DNA from: a virus
Taxonomy: Duplodnaviria; Caudoviricetes
DNA length: 63,647 bases
IMG/VR virus record: IMGVR_UViG_3300046813_000058
Span: 1-63,647 of that record
Reading direction: 5' to 3' (one strand)
A program made the position numbers and the translations under genes. Positions 18,324-59,730 of this stretch are shown here, piece by piece. Below the pieces are notes generated by a model. That model worked only from the letters and a program-made list of their open reading frames with translations. It was not told the origin of the DNA and did no database searches. Positions within the stretch are counted from its first letter, which is position 1. Every line of letters begins with the position of its first letter.

Positions 18324-18581
18324 TCAGCCAATCCCCATCTGTCGCCGTTCGGCCTGCGCATCCTGGGCGTGGCCGCCATGGCCAGACTCGTACGAGCATC
18401 CGCCGGGCCGAGCGGCGCAGTCGATCTCGGCCTCGCCACAGTCGTCGCAGATCGGCAGCAGGTTGCACGCGTCGCACCACAAGGTGGCCGTGCCGGCGGC
18501 CTTCGGGGCACGGCACTTCGCGCGGTCGCAGGTGGTGTTCTGATAGGTGGGCTGAGCCGGTAGGTTCATCGTGTTCATCAC
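18324..18581 (-). CDS. Cys-rich zinc-binding hypothetical protein
   Basis: CDAC...CDDC; leaderless start behind promoter. Confidence 0.6.
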   Translation of the reverse strand: MMNTMNLPAQPTYQNTTCDRAKCRAPKAAGTATLWCDACNLLPICDDCGEAEIDCAARPGGCSYESGHGGHAQDAQAERRQMGIG

Positions 18582-18635: not shown

Positions 18636-18827
18636 TCAGCAGCTACCGCAGCCGCTGAGCCCAGTGTGACACCCGGTCGCCTCGCTCGGGCACCCGTTGT
18701 TCCCGTCCGTGGCTGCGGTGGTGGGATCTGGGATGAACCCGCCGCCGGCTCTGGTCAGCTGCCGGCTCGACAGCACGCGCACGCTCTCACGCGACAGCTT
18801 CAGTACCCGCTTGTTCGTTTGCTTCAT
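18636..18827 (-). CDS. Lanthipeptide/RiPP precursor-like peptide 1
   Basis: Basic leader LKLSRESVRVL...GG, then 33-aa core with 8 Ser/Thr and 4 Cys. Confidence 0.75.
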   Translation of the reverse strand: MKQTNKRVLKLSRESVRVLSSRQLTRAGGGFIPDPTTAATDGNNGCPSEATGCHTGLSGCGSC

Positions 18828-18871: not shown

Positions 18872-18946
<75 letters not shown>

Positions 18947-43098: not shown

Positions 43099-46068
43099 GT
43101 GTCGCTCTTTCGTCCCCCACCGCTCCCACAGCAGCGGCGACCTGGCTCGCTCAGCGGGGTCCCGGCAGCTGCGGGCGATGGCGCGTTCACCGGCTCTGGC
43201 GACATCGCCGGGGCTGGGGTCGGTGGGGTCGCGGGCGCCGGGACGTTCTCCGGCTCGGCGGCGTTCGCCGGCACGAGCGCCGGGCAGGGCGTCGGCGTCC
43301 TCACCGGATCCGGGGCGCTTGCCGGTGGTGGCGCCTCTCTGGCGGGCGGTGCTGGCGCGCTCGCTGGTGTCGGTGCGCTCGCCGGGGTCTCGAACAACTC
43401 CTTCCCGGTCAGCGTGTCGGCGAACGGGCGCTACCTGGTCCACCCCGATGGCACGCCGTTCCTGCTGTTCGCCGACACCACGTGGTCCCTGTTCGAAGAC
43501 ATCCCGATCGCCAGCCTGAACACGTACTTCTCCACGCTCGTCTCGCAGGGCTTCAACGCGGTCAGCTCGAACGCGATGGAGCACCACTACACCCTGGTCA
43601 AGCCGCCCAAGGAGCGCGGCGGGCTGCTGCCGTTCACGCAGAAGATGGACGGCACGACGTTCACGGGCTCCCCGAACGGCACGACCGGGGCGGCCGGCAC
43701 ACAGGGACAATTCGCGAGTGACAACTACAGCAACATCAACAACCAGGCGCCCGACTGCACCTTTATCAACAACAGCTACTGGACCACGGTCGAGACGATC
43801 CTGAACGCGGCGCTGGCCAGCGGGCTGATCGTGCTGATCTGGCCCGGCTACCTCGGGTTCCACGCGAACGACGAGGGCTGGCTCAACGAGATGACGGTGT
43901 GGGACGCGGTTACCGGGGCCGGCGGGTTCACGGGCCAGAGCTTCGCGAATCCGGCCAAGAGCAAGATGTGGAACTTCGGCGCGTGGATGGCGGCGCGCTG
44001 GAAAACGTACCCCAACATCATCTGGGTGATGGGCGGCGACTACGGCAGCGGTGGCCAGAGCCTGAACACCGCGCAGTCGGCGGCGGTGAGCAACCTCATG
44101 GCGGGGCTCAAGTCGGTGGCCGGTCAGGCATCGCTGCTCTACACCGCGCACTGGGATCGGCCGGCGCTATCGACGGATACGGTGCTCGCGGCCGGGTCGT
44201 TCGACCTGAACGGCTGCTACGCCGACGAGAGCGTGGCCGAGCTGGCGCGCCGCGGGTTCGCAGCCTCGCCGACGAAGCCGACCATCGGTCTCGAGTACTT
44301 CTACGAGGCCGACCTGTTCGGCGGCTCGGCGCCATTCCGCAAGTACCCATACTGGCAGTTCCTCGGCGGGGTCGCGGGTGGGTTCTACGGCCACGAGCAG
44401 ATCTGGAGGTTCGACACCGGCTCGCCCGGCACGGACTGGACGACGCTGCTCGCGACGCAGGCACGACTCGACGCCGTCCGGCAGGTCGCGCTTTGGAAGA
44501 CGCTGCCGTGGCACCGCCTGAAGCCCTCGGGGCTCGGCGGCATGATCTCGTTGATCACCGCTGGCGGCGGCACGGCAAGTCCCCAGTCGACGACCTACGT
44601 GGCGGCGGCGGCGACGAGCGAGGGGGATCTCCTGCTCGCGTACATCCCGCCCGACCACACCGGCACGATCACCGTGGCCATGACCGCGATGGCGGCCTCG
44701 GCTCGAGCTCGATGGTTCGATCCGACCAACGCGACCTTCACGGCGATCGGCGTGATCGCCAACACGGGCACGCACGTGTTCACGACGCCGGCCACGAACA
44801 ACGCCGGGGACACGGACTTCCTGCTCGTGCTGGACACGCCGGCCGGCGCCTTCACGGGGTCCGGGGACATGTCGGGGCACGGTGCCGCGCTCGCCGCGGG
44901 GTCCGGCGCGCTCTCGGGGTCCGGCGCGCTCGCCGGCGGCGGGGCCGCGCTGATCGCTGCGGCTGGCGCGGCGACTGGATCGGGGACGTTCGCCGGCGTG
45001 GGCGCGGCGGCAGTGCAAGGCGGCGGCGCGCTCTCCGGGTCGGGGGCCATGGCCGGCAGCGGCGCGGAGCTCGCGACCGGGATCGGTGCGTTCGCCGGGA
45101 CTTCGGCGCTCGCTGCGGTCGGCCTCTCGAACGCGGCAGGCTCGGCAGCCCTTACCGGCGCCGGGGCGCTCGCTGCGGTCGGCGGCGGGCTGGCGGCCGG
45201 ATCGGCGACGCTCTCGGCCAGCGGCACCATCTCGGCGACCGGCGCATCGCCGGCGCCCACGGCAGGCGACTTCACCGGATCGGGCGCGATCGCCGGGGCA
45301 GGCGCCGCGGGCGCGGCCGGAACGGGCACCGGAAGCCTGTCCGGTGCCGGTGCAATCGCCGGGGCCGGCGCGCAACTCACCGCGGGCGCGGGCGCGGTGG
45401 CGGGCGCGGGCAGCCTTGCGGGCGCGGGTGCGCAGCTCATCGCCACGAGCGGCGACCTGGCCGGCTCCGGCGCGCTCTTGGGGGCGAGTTCCGCGCTCAA
45501 CTCGGGGGCCGGCGTGGGCGCGCTCGGCGGCGGTGGAGCGATCGCCGGCGCGGGCACGGCGCGGGCGGCCGGAGCATCGGCGATCGCGGCGACGGGCACG
45601 ATCTCCGGGCATGCCGTGGGCATCACGATCGGCCCGGTGTCCGGCTCGCTCACCTGGAGCCCGCTCTTTGGTCGACTGCAGGACGGAGGCCCGAACATGA
45701 TCGAGCTCTCAGGACCGCTCACCGTGTACCGCGGCGACGACGTGGACTATGTGCTCGTCGTCACCGACGACACCGACACGCCGATCGACCTGACCTCGGT
45801 TGCCGCGCTCGAGGTCCAGGTCAAGACCGCGATCGGCGCCGCCGACCCGCCCACCCTGTCCAAGTCCCTCGCGGCCGGGACCGTCGTGCTGCTCGACCAG
45901 ACCGCGCCGGCCACCAAGGGCCGCGCGTCGTTCGGGTTCACGTCGGCAGAGACGAACATCACCCCTGGGCTCTACTGGCTCGACATCGTGCTCGTGCTCG
46001 CCGGCAAGCGGACCCACGTCATCACACCGCGCGCGTTCACGATCACCGACGTTGTGAACCCGCCCTGA
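43099..46068 (+). CDS. Large tail/virion protein with DUF4038 (GH140 apiosidase-like) domain, collagen-binding-like domain, Gly/Ala-rich repeats and BppU-like C-terminus
   Basis: NGRYLV..DGTPF..FADTTW, YPNIIWVMGGD, KPT...EYFYE, WFDP, YRGD. Confidence 0.75.
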   Translation: MSLFRPPPLPQQRRPGSLSGVPAAAGDGAFTGSGDIAGAGVGGVAGAGTFSGSAAFAGTSAGQGVGVLTGSGALAGGGASLAGGAGALAGVGALAGVSNNSFPVSVSANGRYLVHPDGTPFLLFADTTWSLFEDIPIASLNTYFSTLVSQGFNAVSSNAMEHHYTLVKPPKERGGLLPFTQKMDGTTFTGSPNGTTGAAGTQGQFASDNYSNINNQAPDCTFINNSYWTTVETILNAALASGLIVLIWPGYLGFHANDEGWLNEMTVWDAVTGAGGFTGQSFANPAKSKMWNFGAWMAARWKTYPNIIWVMGGDYGSGGQSLNTAQSAAVSNLMAGLKSVAGQASLLYTAHWDRPALSTDTVLAAGSFDLNGCYADESVAELARRGFAASPTKPTIGLEYFYEADLFGGSAPFRKYPYWQFLGGVAGGFYGHEQIWRFDTGSPGTDWTTLLATQARLDAVRQVALWKTLPWHRLKPSGLGGMISLITAGGGTASPQSTTYVAAAATSEGDLLLAYIPPDHTGTITVAMTAMAASARARWFDPTNATFTAIGVIANTGTHVFTTPATNNAGDTDFLLVLDTPAGAFTGSGDMSGHGAALAAGSGALSGSGALAGGGAALIAAAGAATGSGTFAGVGAAAVQGGGALSGSGAMAGSGAELATGIGAFAGTSALAAVGLSNAAGSAALTGAGALAAVGGGLAAGSATLSASGTISATGASPAPTAGDFTGSGAIAGAGAAGAAGTGTGSLSGAGAIAGAGAQLTAGAGAVAGAGSLAGAGAQLIATSGDLAGSGALLGASSALNSGAGVGALGGGGAIAGAGTARAAGASAIAATGTISGHAVGITIGPVSGSLTWSPLFGRLQDGGPNMIELSGPLTVYRGDDVDYVLVVTDDTDTPIDLTSVAALEVQVKTAIGAADPPTLSKSLAAGTVVLLDQTAPATKGRASFGFTSAETNITPGLYWLDIVLVLAGKRTHVITPRAFTITDVVNPP

Positions 46069-46122: not shown

Positions 46123-46779
46123 ATGGCAGACATCAGCGTACCCGTTCAAGTCACACCGACCCCGCCGATCCCGCCCAAGCCGGGCTACAAGACCACCGAG
46201 TGGTGGGGCCATCTCGCCGCGATGGCGCTTACGCTCGTCTTCGCGAGCGGCATCCTGACGAACGCCACGGAGATCCAGATCGCCGGGATCGCCGCGGCGT
46301 GGCTGGGCTCGTTCGGCTACCAGGTCAACCGGAGCTGGGTGAAGACCAGCGCCGTACTGCTGCTCGTCGGCGCGCTCGGGACCGCGCCGACCGCCTGCAC
46401 CGCGACCGAGCGCAGCGCCGCGGCGACCAACGCGGGCCACGCGGCGATCAACTGCACTGCGACGGTGATCGGCACCACACCGGGGCTCGACCTCGCGACC
46501 CTCGCGGCGATCGCCAACACGGTCGCGGCCGAGCGGACGAAGTGCATGACGGCGAGCGGGCTCGACTGGACGTGCGTCGAGACCGACGCGATCGGCCAAG
46601 GTGTGACGCTCGGCGGATGCGCGCTCGTCCAGCTGGTCGCTGCGGCGGCCAAGGCGATCTCGCCGGCCGTGTCTGGGCTGGCCGCGAACCCTGCGCCGCC
46701 ACCGGGTCGCGCCGAGCTCGAGGCGTTCCGCCGCAAAGTCGGCGGTGCGACGTGGCACACGGCGACGGGTGACCTGTGA
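46123..46779 (+). CDS. Putative holin-like membrane protein with extended C-terminal domain
   Basis: KPGYKTTEWW plus 2-3 TM segments, then PTAC and Cys-containing domain. Confidence 0.55.
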   Translation: MADISVPVQVTPTPPIPPKPGYKTTEWWGHLAAMALTLVFASGILTNATEIQIAGIAAAWLGSFGYQVNRSWVKTSAVLLLVGALGTAPTACTATERSAAATNAGHAAINCTATVIGTTPGLDLATLAAIANTVAAERTKCMTASGLDWTCVETDAIGQGVTLGGCALVQLVAAAAKAISPAVSGLAANPAPPPGRAELEAFRRKVGGATWHTATGDL

Positions 46780-46949
46780 AGCGCAAGATCGGCAAGCTCG
46801 AGCTTCATCGCGAGGAGCTGCGCCGCGTCGAACCTGCCGCGGTCAACGGCGGCATCACGACGTACACGACGACGGCCGATGAGGCATGCTCGGGGCCGTG
46901 CTGCGGCAAGGTAACTGTTTCCTGGTGCGCGGGCAAAGACGGCGCGTAG
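46776..46949 (+). CDS. Lanthipeptide/RiPP precursor-like peptide 2 (57 aa, not in ORF track)
   Basis: MKRKIGKLELHREELRRVEPAAVNGG-ITTYTTTADEACSGPCCGKVTVSWCAGKDGA; GTGA coupling to upstream gene. Confidence 0.7.
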   Translation: MKRKIGKLELHREELRRVEPAAVNGGITTYTTTADEACSGPCCGKVTVSWCAGKDGA

Positions 46950-46950
46950 C

Positions 46951-47562
46951 TCAGTCCCTGAACGAGTCGCGCATCGGCATGATCACGTAGCGCGTGCCGC
47001 CGTAGCCCTCGAACAGCATCGGCTCGTGCATTGGGCCGTCCACCGGACCGCCCCACATCGTGAGCCGGATGCCGTGCTGCTCGCCGTCGTTGACCACGTC
47101 TTGGATGTCGGCGATCGACGCGAGGTAGCGCGGGTTGACGACGTACCCCGTGGGCGGCGACTTCCCCGGTCCCTTCGGCATGGCCCTGTCGAAGGGCGGG
47201 TAGTCCTCGATGCAGCCGGCCTGGACGACCATCCCTGCCGGCCCCAGGTCGAGCATGATCGTCTTGCCGTCGGGCCGGATCTCGATGACGCGCTTCCCGT
47301 CCTCGTCGGTCAGAACGCCATCCCGGAGCTCATGCTGTGCCGCGGCGGCAGCGAAGATGTGCTCGCGCTTGATCGAGAACTTGGCCTTCGGGTGCGATCC
47401 GACAGGGATGCGCGCCAGCCGATGGCCGTCGGTTGCCACCAGCTCGCCATCGAGCACGGCGACGACCGCGAGGTGCGGCCGGTCGGCCGAGGTTAGGCCG
47501 GGGAAGCTCCACTGCGCCACGGCGCGGAGCAAGTCGGTTCGGATGCGAAGTGGATTAGTCAT
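46951..47562 (-). CDS. Short DNA polymerase III beta-clamp-like protein
   Basis: LVATDGHRLA, YPPFDRAMP, NPRYL, YVIMPMR; leaderless promoter at 47569-47597. Confidence 0.8.
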   Translation of the reverse strand: MTNPLRIRTDLLRAVAQWSFPGLTSADRPHLAVVAVLDGELVATDGHRLARIPVGSHPKAKFSIKREHIFAAAAAQHELRDGVLTDEDGKRVIEIRPDGKTIMLDLGPAGMVVQAGCIEDYPPFDRAMPKGPGKSPPTGYVVNPRYLASIADIQDVVNDGEQHGIRLTMWGGPVDGPMHEPMLFEGYGGTRYVIMPMRDSFRD

Positions 47563-49305: not shown

Positions 49306-50193
49306 CTACCGGGCGTCGTGCGCGCGACCGTCAAGAATCGGCAGGTGGACCGTCTTGCCGCTGCCGTTCCACTGCTTGAAGTGAAATGCCACGCCGTGCC
49401 GCAGCGCCGCCTCACGCGCAGTGCGCACCCAGTCGAGCTGTGCCGGCCGGCGGTTCGGCCCGCTCTCGTCTCCAACGATCAGCCAATGGATCAGACGATC
49501 ATGGCGAACCTCGGCAACGCGAGAGTCCAGCGCCTTGGCCCATGCCTCCGCCGGGATGTGCTCCAGCAGCGGTTCGGCCGAGATCCCTCGGCGTATTGCC
49601 GGCGTCCGGCGCAGGATCGCCGCGCGGCGCAGCAGCTGCTCCGTGTTCTCGCCGGTCACCATGAGGGTGACGTTGGGGTATGGCTCGCTGGCCTCCGCCC
49701 TACCAGACCCGCCGCAGTTGACGCATTTGCCGCCCTGCTCGCAGGTGTCCACGCCGGACCCTGGCGGCTTGCACCAGCTGCAGACCTTGCCCGTCCACGG
49801 CAGCAGCGCCGCGAAGTTCTCCGGCCGCTTCGACAGCATGAGCCAGTCCAGCCACGCCGTCTCCTCGATCAACCGCCACAGCCGATCGCGGGCCTCGTTC
49901 TGCCGCTCGCGAACCTCGGGCACCTGGTGGATCTCCGCCCAGTCCGCCATCGAGCTGCAGAACACGCTCGCGCGCACACCGGCCTTCTCCGCCGCAGCGT
50001 TCCAGGCCAGCGGCTTGCGCCAGTACGCGTCACCAAAGAATCGGCGCGGTGCCGTCGGGCCCCAGTGCTCTCCACCGAGCCGGTGATCGAAAGCCTCGGC
50101 ATAACAAGCGTCGCACCCGGCTGAGACCTTGTCGCAGCCCCACCAGATGTTCCAAGTGTGGTCACACCACGAGATCTGCGTCTTCTCTCCCAT
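49306..50193 (-). CDS. DUF5131 (phage Gp37/Gp68) radical-SAM-like protein
   Basis: TQISWCDHTWN.WWGCDKVSAGCDACYA, VFCSSMAD, LSKRP, SAEPLL, WLIVGDESG, FHFKQW. Confidence 0.9.
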   Translation of the reverse strand: MGEKTQISWCDHTWNIWWGCDKVSAGCDACYAEAFDHRLGGEHWGPTAPRRFFGDAYWRKPLAWNAAAEKAGVRASVFCSSMADWAEIHQVPEVRERQNEARDRLWRLIEETAWLDWLMLSKRPENFAALLPWTGKVCSWCKPPGSGVDTCEQGGKCVNCGGSGRAEASEPYPNVTLMVTGENTEQLLRRAAILRRTPAIRRGISAEPLLEHIPAEAWAKALDSRVAEVRHDRLIHWLIVGDESGPNRRPAQLDWVRTAREAALRHGVAFHFKQWNGSGKTVHLPILDGRAHDAR

Positions 50194-50228
50194 CCGCCGT
50201 TTATAGCTCATCTACGCCACAAATACAA

Positions 50229-51557: not shown

Positions 51558-52274
51558 TCAAGCCTTGCAGAGCGCGTGCAGCGCGGCGATCCCGCCCGGC
51601 AGCGTGATTGCCGAGATGTCGACGTCCCCCGCGCCTGGCGCCGAGGTCGGGTACCCGCTCGGTACCGCGGACGTCCCGCCGGCCTCGCGGTACTGCCAGA
51701 GCAGCAGGTGCTCGAGGTCAGTTCCGGTCCGCGCCAGGAAGGCCGCCGTGCTCTCGCCTTGCGCGTTGAGGTGCGCGCCGTACAGCGCGATCGCTGAGAG
51801 CGCGCAGCCAAGCCGGTCGGCGATCCCCAGGCTCCGCAGCAGCTCGCCGCCGTAGAGCGTCGCCCGGCGTCCGGTGAGCTCGAAGTATCGGTTGGCGAAC
51901 GTCACCACGCGGTCCTCGGCCAGCGCGCGGCTCGGGCTCCGGATCCGCTGGCCGCCGCGCTCCACGTCCACCATCATCGGCAGCGTGTTGGCCCGGCGTC
52001 CGCCCGCGCTGGTCACTGCGTAGTCCGCCTGTGCCGCGCCGTCGATCCCGAAGTCGAGGTAGTGGTACGCGCCCTCGAAGTGGTCGGGTCGCGAGCCGGC
52101 CGAGCGCAGGAACTTGGCGCGCTCGCTCACGTAGGCCCCGGGGCGATAGTACGTGCCCTGCGAGCACTTGAAGATGGCCACGTGCCACGGCGGTCCGGCT
52201 GCGCAGAACAAGGCCCAGTTCTTCGGGCCATCGCCGGGGTACACGTCCACCGCGAGAGGTTGGAGATTTGTCAT
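51558..52274 (-). CDS. GH25 lysozyme (endolysin)
   Basis: VDVY, KCSQG, GAYHY, MVDVE, LLWQY, GDVD. Confidence 0.85.
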   Translation of the reverse strand: MTNLQPLAVDVYPGDGPKNWALFCAAGPPWHVAIFKCSQGTYYRPGAYVSERAKFLRSAGSRPDHFEGAYHYLDFGIDGAAQADYAVTSAGGRRANTLPMMVDVERGGQRIRSPSRALAEDRVVTFANRYFELTGRRATLYGGELLRSLGIADRLGCALSAIALYGAHLNAQGESTAAFLARTGTDLEHLLLWQYREAGGTSAVPSGYPTSAPGAGDVDISAITLPGGIAALHALCKA

Positions 52275-59445: not shown

Positions 59446-59730
59446 ATGACCTACTCGAACCACCGCAAGGCAGCTATCCGCAACTCGCCGAACTGGCTCG
59501 ACGCGCTCGACCTGCCAGCGGAGGCGCCGCTCCCCCGCATCTACCCGGAGCCCCGCACGGCGATCGCCGCCCGCCGGCGCGAGCTCACCGCTCGGACCTA
59601 CGTGCGCTTGGCTCCGGCCCCCATGCCGGCCGCCCCGCGGCGTCCGGTCAGCGCGATCCGTGACGCGATCAGGAACGCCGCGATCCTCGCGTTGGTCGCG
59701 CTCGCCATCGTCGCCTGCGTCCGCTGGTAG
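59446..59730 (+). CDS. Hypothetical protein with C-terminal TM helix
   Basis: Leaderless after TTGCGC-16 bp-TATAAA (59412-59439). Confidence 0.6.
   Translation: MTYSNHRKAAIRNSPNWLDALDLPAEAPLPRIYPEPRTAIAARRRELTARTYVRLAPAPMPAAPRRPVSAIRDAIRNAAILALVALAIVACVRW

Follow-up and report, generated by a model that had tools for sequence, protein, structure and literature searches.

The short gene that we call P2, which closes the structural block of a phage genome recovered from soil, encodes a peptide composed of a leader and a core, and the account of it that we favour is an orphan precursor of the RiPP type that would be matured by enzymes of the host. We give that account a probability of about 0.45. 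Whether P2 is a gene at all is a separate question and has a much firmer answer. P2 is a genuine phage gene, and its leader belongs to a group that includes two other short peptides of this phage lineage, P1 and P3.

The window, by which we mean the whole stretch of DNA that was analysed, is a complete virus record of 63,647 bp with direct terminal repeats, an estimated completeness of 100% and a GC content of 68%. Its structural genes include a terminase, a portal, a Mu-F-like head protein, an SU10-type capsid and baseplate J. A replication and recombination block on the opposite strand holds a clamp-like protein, RusA, YqaJ and a DUF5131 protein. There is no integrase among the Pfam results for the genome. 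No isolated phage is a near relative: the best matches of the terminase and the capsid, which are 25-31% identical, belong to phages of unrelated hosts, and a blastn search with the window gave no match that was useful for inferring the host. Near-identical phage DNA is present in 14 DNA sequencing runs from soil and rhizosphere, the matching contigs of which added no variants, and there is no RNA run among the sequencing runs listed as carrying the phage. Much of the comparison below uses two relatives, G001 (64.8 kb, complete) and G002 (a 37.6-kb fragment). The DUF5131 protein, of the phage Gp37/Gp68 family, has a CX6CX2C motif, and its gene is found in G001 and is precisely absent from G002 between conserved neighbours. 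The tail-fibre-like protein encoded ahead of P2 combines long Gly/Ala-rich repeats with an apiosidase-like and a collagen-binding-type domain, and conservation in G001 and G002 extends over the first 591 residues only.

Table 1. Positions of the features discussed, in window coordinates unless another genome is named.
Feature	Position	Strand	Remarks
P2, 57-codon gene for a leader-plus-core peptide	46776..46949	+	start GTG, stop TAG 46947-46949
P2 leader part, residues 1-26	46776..46853	+	basic N-terminus, L8xL10xR12x5V18, V23xG25G26
P2 core part, residues 27-57	46854..46946	+	Thr/Ser/Cys-rich, 4 Cys
GTGA start/stop overlap of P2 with upstream gene	46776..46779	+	putative translational coupling
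218-aa membrane protein	46123..46779	+	N-terminal 2-TM module, third hydrophobic segment ending in Cys, Cys-containing C-terminal domain (from hydropathy)
Tail-fibre-like 989-aa protein, apiosidase-like glycosidase domain	43099..46068	+	Pfam PF13204 at 4e-41, PF12904; same + strand block as P2
Overlapping ORF	46805-47056	-	stop-interrupted in G001 and G002
Convergent sliding-clamp/processivity-factor-like gene	46951..47562	-	stop 2 bases past P2 stop
DUF5131 protein	49306-50211	-	
GH25 endolysin candidate	51558-52274	-	
P1, 63-codon P2 paralogue	18636..18827	-	like leader, other 4-Cys core; found by pattern and by leader profile match
85-aa Cys-rich ORF	18324-18581	-	directly downstream of P1
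Sigma-70-like site	18615-18588		between P1 and 85-aa Cys-rich ORF
tRNA-Met	18872-18946	+	
94-aa ORF at the P3 site	59446-59730		unrelated to P3
P3, 50-aa peptide	G001:59548-59697 (= L017:19548-19697)	+	found by leader HMM
P3, 50-aa peptide	G002:21560-21709 (= L023:1560-1709)	-	found by leader HMM

The first-pass annotation of this DNA described a 57-aa ORF whose GTG overlaps the TGA of the gene ahead of it, and its coordinates and translation agree with ours. It counted 6 Thr, 2 Ser and 4 Cys in the core (residues 27-57), which is correct, and the leader motif that it read, LxLxRx5V plus GG, is found as L8-x-L10-x-R12-x5-V18 and G25-G26. None of this makes the ORF a gene. Short ORFs are plentiful at 68% GC; the genomes of four related phages contain 3,911 stop-to-stop segments of at least 25 aa, so the length of P2 alone is not significant. 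P2 is also without a matching family model. These are the points in favour of regarding it as a chance ORF in GC-rich DNA, and the argument for a gene must rest on conservation and not on ORF length.

That argument is a robust one. There are six distinct versions of P2 (window, G001, G002, P0002, P0004 and L012/P0026), and their boundaries agree. The versions in G001 and G002 are 89% identical to that of the window and have identical boundaries, the homologue P0002 is 74% identical, the L012 metagenome contig encodes a version that is 66-67% identical, and P0004 was found at E 1.2e-7 in an exhaustive HMMER search, with the final 5 residues of the core missing. The position of the start is conserved, and in P0002, P0004 and L012 the codon is ATG. 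Codons of the window and of G001 or G002 differ by 10-15 synonymous and 6 non-synonymous changes (dN/dS 0.27-0.37), an excess of synonymous change, and alternative frames, among them the overlapping ORF on the other strand, are broken in the relatives. GC at codon position 3 is 0.83 in P2, similar to the adjoining genes. A composite pattern (the leader motif, G[GA], 15-45 aa to the stop and at least 3 Cys) matches twice in the window, at P2 and at P1, against a mean of 0.07 in 30 mononucleotide shuffles. The idea of a chance ORF is already contradicted by the conservation data, and we regard it as scarcely credible.

Databases add little to this picture. Neither P2 nor its homologues have any Pfam, NCBIfam or PHROGs match, even at E up to 10. 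Against 1.84 billion representative proteins P2 gave 3 matches at E up to 0.001, with one true homologue, P0004. The other two, P0003 and P0005, are long repeat proteins that match through repeated short segments, and we took them to be spurious. The repeats of P0003 (1136 aa) are like the junction of the P2 leader and core, with 58% identity over 23 residues and 7 matched stretches; we provisionally treat this resemblance as chance plus inflation by the repeats. The lone confirmed match of 105 in a pattern scan of contigs for P2 lies inside a UvrC gene and is spurious, and that scan yielded no P2 homologue beside a maturase. For P2 and P1 there is no tblastn match in GenBank phages or PLSDB plasmids. 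Searching a P2 profile (A3) against the PDB returned insignificant zinc-finger-like or Cys-pattern matches only (E 0.17 or worse), and an AlphaFold2 model of P2 built from 6 sequences has a mean pLDDT of 53, a pTM of 0.28 and no fold. Inspection of the P2 sequence revealed no hydrophobic stretch, TM segment, signal peptide or lipobox, and P2 matches no PHROG lysis family. Promoter and terminator scans around P2 found none.

The surroundings of P2 are conserved too. Its GTG (46776-46778) shares bases with the TGA (46777-46779) that ends the membrane-protein gene, and in 4 of the 4 known contexts (window, G001, G002 and L012) P2 lies behind this same gene with an [A/G]TGA overlap, which reads GTGA in the window, G001 and G002 and ATGA in L012. 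The neighbour can be recognised there by its N-terminal two-helix module alone, its C-terminal half having diverged beyond recognition. Since the stop of the convergent gene falls directly after its own, P2 is the last gene of the plus-strand structural block, past the tail-fibre genes, and the first-pass annotation was right to place it last. That annotation also described the neighbour as holin-like, which we cannot uphold: the 218-aa protein has no family match in Pfam, PHROG or NCBIfam, and the sole recognisable endolysin is encoded 4.6 kb off on the other strand. To call the protein a holin is a guess, and we take a superinfection-exclusion or receptor-masking lipoprotein to be equally possible. 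The protein resembles a fusion of a two-TM module, a lipobox-like segment and a domain of the type found in phage G003. The two-TM module stands alone as a 96-aa protein in the unrelated phage L005, where its size and topology would suit a holin. The third hydrophobic segment has a conserved terminal Cys and is lipobox-like, and the Cys-containing C-terminal domain is common to the 218-aa protein and the otherwise unrelated G003. The P2 peptide is absent from both L005 and G003.

The leader of P2 has relatives within this phage lineage. The partner peptide, P1, is located 28 kb from P2 as the first-pass annotation said, and the scan of related phage genomes for small peptides that it suggested uncovered P3, a third leader-sharing paralogue with 4 Cys, in G001 and G002. 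P3 is antisense to its neighbours in both. In all three families the leader reads L-x-L-x-R-x5-L/V and ends GG, GA or AG, and L8, L10, E13, R16 and G25 are almost invariant over 19 peptides of the three. P2 has about 3 residues fewer than P1 between the motif and the GG. The claim that the cores of P1 and P2 are unlike each other also holds, and it extends to the third family: there is one leader type and there are three different Thr/Ser-rich cores with 4 Cys.

P2 is a divergent member of this group, on the basis of profile comparison and of ranking by leader HMMs. The profile comparison is convincing and the scores of single sequences are marginal. Aligned to the P1 alignment by hhalign, P2 gives a probability of 95.8% and an E-value of 7.4e-9 over 35 columns, which span the leader in full and the beginning of the core. 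An HMM of 11 P1-family leaders, run over the 3,911 six-frame segments of the four phage genomes, ranks P1 at the top, then P3, then the P2 orthologues. The latter score E 0.0018, 0.0034 and 0.032, the last being the P2 of the window; one unrelated segment, at 0.036, comes close to that value, and the rest are at 0.55 or worse. With a widened HMM of 36 leaders the P2 orthologues score E 0.0071, 0.023 and 0.14 (again the window is the weakest) and the next segment 0.51. The reciprocal HMM, made from P2 leaders, has P1 and P3 as its top non-self matches at E 0.12-0.54 only.

The wider leader family is larger than the phage lineage. The P1 family started as 12 sequences of about 60 aa. A profile of all three families, run over 4,347 candidates, widened it to 43 proteins at E up to 0.01, every one of them named 'hypothetical protein' only. 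Most carry the P1 core box, which is nearly invariant after the GG, and in several the leader is joined to a different core. Within IMG/VR the P1-type box is confined to this phage lineage (3 loci of 47 pattern matches, and 3 of 16 in a second scan), so the other members lie on contigs without a viral classification. The family is thus probably mainly cellular, and the phage would have acquired its copies. In an AlphaFold2 model of P1 the leader is confident (pLDDT 75-83) and the core is unstructured (45-51).

Some features of the other two loci may be recorded here. The tRNA-Met gene lies 45 bp from the start of P1 on the other strand, in the gap between a scaffold-like gene and the capsid gene. 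The Cys-rich ORF that follows P1 after a sigma-70-like site has a copy that is 89% identical elsewhere in the G002 genome, and none was found in G001. At the P3 site the window has an ORF unrelated to P3.

It had been claimed that P1 and P2 show a conserved leader with a hypervariable core. Between paralogues that description stands. Among the orthologues of P2 it does not, where the core is fixed and the leader is drifting. The alignment of the six P2 sequences has 25 invariant columns. Invariant residues take up 8 of the 26 leader positions (M1, K2, K7, E13, R16, V23, G25 and G26), and positions 8 (L/V) and 10 (L/I), together with E13 and R16, are retained in all six; at core positions 27-52 the figure is 17 of 26, including the 4 Cys, T31, T33, S39, T47 and S49. 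Compared with L012, the leader has 2 synonymous and 12 non-synonymous changes (dN/dS about 1.3) and the core has 9 synonymous and 5 non-synonymous (dN/dS 0.12). P1 compared with G001 has 11 synonymous and 3 non-synonymous changes, and all three of these are in the leader. This pattern of selection fits a product with a specific target behind a leader that would need few contact residues.

The claim that P1 and P2 belong to a RiPP precursor family is upheld in part. The kinship of the P1, P2 and P3 leaders and the published leader motif argue for it; an enzyme or exporter in the phage, and a precursor model that matches P2, are both missing. P2 has the features expected of a class I LanA peptide itself, namely the leader motif, the terminal Gly-Gly (6 of 6 versions) and a core with Ser/Thr and Cys, and it lacks those expected of the locus, namely LanB and LanC in the phage genome and a C39 peptidase or ABC exporter nearby. 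Pfam and NCBIfam searches of about 80 predicted phage proteins found no LanB, LanC, LanM, radical-SAM/SPASM, YcaO, C39 or ABC-transporter domain, and no radical-SAM/SPASM maturase was found adjoining P2. The DUF5131 protein, product of the one enzyme-like gene with a Cys motif, was considered as a maturase and ruled out, because G002 lacks it and retains P2 and P3. Four large unannotated phage proteins gave nothing significant against PDB sequences. There may be a novel maturase encoded by the phage, since many of its proteins are unannotated and leave room for one.

Comparison with existing families gives leads of uneven value. In a feature search of the Atlas, clusters with the class I lanthipeptide leader domain PF28317 are among the nearest to P2 (0.86) and P1 (0.88), both under the guide value of 0.9, and one unnamed cluster, mostly Myxococcota, is near P1 and also below that value. 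We take these proximities as leads only. P1 matches TIGR04149 (GG_sam_targ_CFB, precursors of RiPPs modified by radical-SAM/SPASM enzymes) at 16.8 and 14.5 bits, which is below the cut-off of 25, and shares its style of leader. P2 and 4 homologues have no match to this model at E up to 10, a six-frame search of the window finds P1 alone (14.5 bits), and the phage has no SPASM maturase. Double-glycine leaders have hydrophobic residues at -4, -7, -12 and -15 from the GG. P2 has Val at -4 and Leu at -12 but Pro at -7 and Arg at -15, and the P1 family is closer to the consensus than P2.

The nearest parallel in the literature comes from Bacteroidetes. Some class I lanthipeptide precursors of that group carry LxLxKx5L in place of FxLD, and many of these leaders end in Gly-Gly and often have a C39 protease encoded nearby, according to Walker et al. 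(PMC7268733). The LanA peptides of the pinensin group resemble P2 in the L-x-L-x-basic-x5-hydrophobic spacing, the terminal GG, the Thr/Ser-rich core with Cys after Ser/Thr, and the use of a shared leader for several cores. P2 differs in having Arg for Lys and a shorter distance from motif to GG, in lacking a nearby LanB, LanC or C39 gene, in belonging to a phage of 68% GC, and in a core that has no annotated relative.

Other systems offer parallels in organization. In prochlorosin systems one promiscuous synthetase serves many precursors that are scattered in the genome. P2 and its paralogues are similar in that they too are multiple precursor genes, set apart from any enzyme gene, that combine one leader type with unrelated cores; they differ in the family of the leader, and any enzyme for P2 would lie outside the phage genome, in the host. 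Sublancin on SP-beta is a prophage-borne and complete bacteriocin/RiPP locus with its own modifying enzyme, exporter and immunity genes. It too is a Cys-rich peptide gene in a phage genome, but the phage of the window has precursors only. The synthetase of the prochlorosin type is named as ProcM in PMC11118758. Intracellular class I lanthipeptides that act against phages ('lanthiphage') occur in Actinobacteria and have core motifs of the Thr-x-Asp-x-Cys type, as described in the preprint 10.1101/2024.06.26.600839. They are like P2 in being peptides of the lanthipeptide type at the interface of phage and host, with a core element Thr-x-Asp...Cys-x3-Cys. They are host-encoded, anti-phage and equipped with full enzyme sets, and they are likened to P2 by the core motif and not by the leaders.

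The account of P2 as an orphan precursor would work as follows. Translation of P2 would be coupled to that of the membrane-protein gene ahead of it, where the structural and presumably late block ends, and its expression would be late, together with its neighbours. The 26-residue leader, LxLx[K/R]x5[L/V]...GG, would be a handle for recognition and cleavage, and the core of 26-31 residues, rich in Thr, Ser and Cys, would be the functional moiety. With no recognisable maturase or exporter in the phage, maturation would fall to host enzymes: the leader would dock on a maturase whose usual substrates are precursors of the host that bear this motif. The most likely chemistry would be thioether (lanthionine-type) links between the four invariant Cys and invariant Ser/Thr. 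The leader might then be removed past the GG by a C39-type peptidase/exporter of the host, or the peptide might simply be freed at lysis. That P2 is modified at all, and by what chemistry, is inferred, as are the reliance on host enzymes, the time of expression and the target of the peptide; the proposal of the first-pass annotation that production or release could be timed with lysis is of the same kind.

Three other accounts of P2 as a real gene have to be weighed against this one. P2 could be an unmodified peptide with a double-glycine leader, similar to a class II bacteriocin or a signal, that is processed by a host ABC-exporter peptidase or released by lysis and forms two extracellular disulfides from its Cys. 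A phage without a maturase and a VxGG that is invariant in 6 of 6 versions would both be expected, as would the strong conservation of the core if there is a defined target, and about one third of double-Gly leaders are spread across many peptide classes (PMC7268733). The difficulty is in the details of the sequence. The N-terminal LxLxR is kept across three families, beyond the known needs of exporter proteases, the invariant Ser/Thr ahead of each Cys suit the logic of thioethers, and -7 and -15 are non-hydrophobic. There is also no immunity or exporter gene nearby, and we judge this account unlikely. The product might instead never leave the cell. It could be a decoy or inhibitor of a host maturase of the RRE type, for example one that serves an anti-phage peptide defence, or a metal-binding regulator with its four Cys. 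Leader-bearing peptides without any enzyme, two in this phage and three in its relatives, are what one would expect of such an effector, and intracellular anti-phage class I lanthipeptides are known to exist (10.1101/2024.06.26.600839), with core motifs that the TxDxxCxxxC of P2 recalls. But a decoy needs the leader alone, and in P2 purifying selection is strong on the core, whereas it is the leader that drifts. The parallel with lanthiphage is one of core motif. A Cys4 metal site finds no help in the insignificant zinc-finger-like matches or in the low-confidence structural model. An intracellular role therefore seems to us rather improbable.

In the remaining account P2 serves the membrane protein, either as an accessory subunit or as its regulator, to time lysis, exclude superinfecting phages or mask a receptor, and the 'leader' would be no more than a basic amphipathic segment. 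Phages often put exclusion or lysis genes after the tail-fibre gene. The position of P2 behind such a gene is compatible with this, and so is an overlap and synteny kept in every context where P2 is known. P2 itself has none of the marks of a membrane or exported partner (TM segment, signal peptide or lipobox), the relatives of either half of the membrane protein, in G003 and L005, lack P2, and P1 and P3 share the leader yet sit in other contexts on the opposite strand. We give this account poor odds.

What is known in this case is the type of leader. What is new is the core family of P2, the enzyme-less state, the number of copies, which is two here and three in relatives, and the fact that a phage carries them. 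The result listings of our literature search contained no description of enzyme-less precursors of the RiPP type in phage genomes, which holds for those listings and not for everything in print. The mining of genomes for RiPPs takes enzymes as its anchor, so a precursor that travels alone is invisible to it. P2 lends itself to direct testing, being short and having a leader motif that indicates a defined class of enzyme, and the phage recurs in several soil and rhizosphere metagenomes.

A bolder idea, which we hold to be possible but doubtful, is that this lineage of soil phages, which is of the lytic type, feeds its enzyme-less precursors into the maturation machinery of the host. In such 'precursor hijacking' cross-linked peptides would be freed at lysis, or the defence machinery of the host would be jammed. 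If this is true, peptides designed by phages might kill competitors or condition neighbouring cells, and phages would be new players in the ecology of RiPPs that produce, hijack or sabotage. Were phages to supply the substrates alone and use the maturases of their hosts, they would be a hidden source of new peptide scaffolds.
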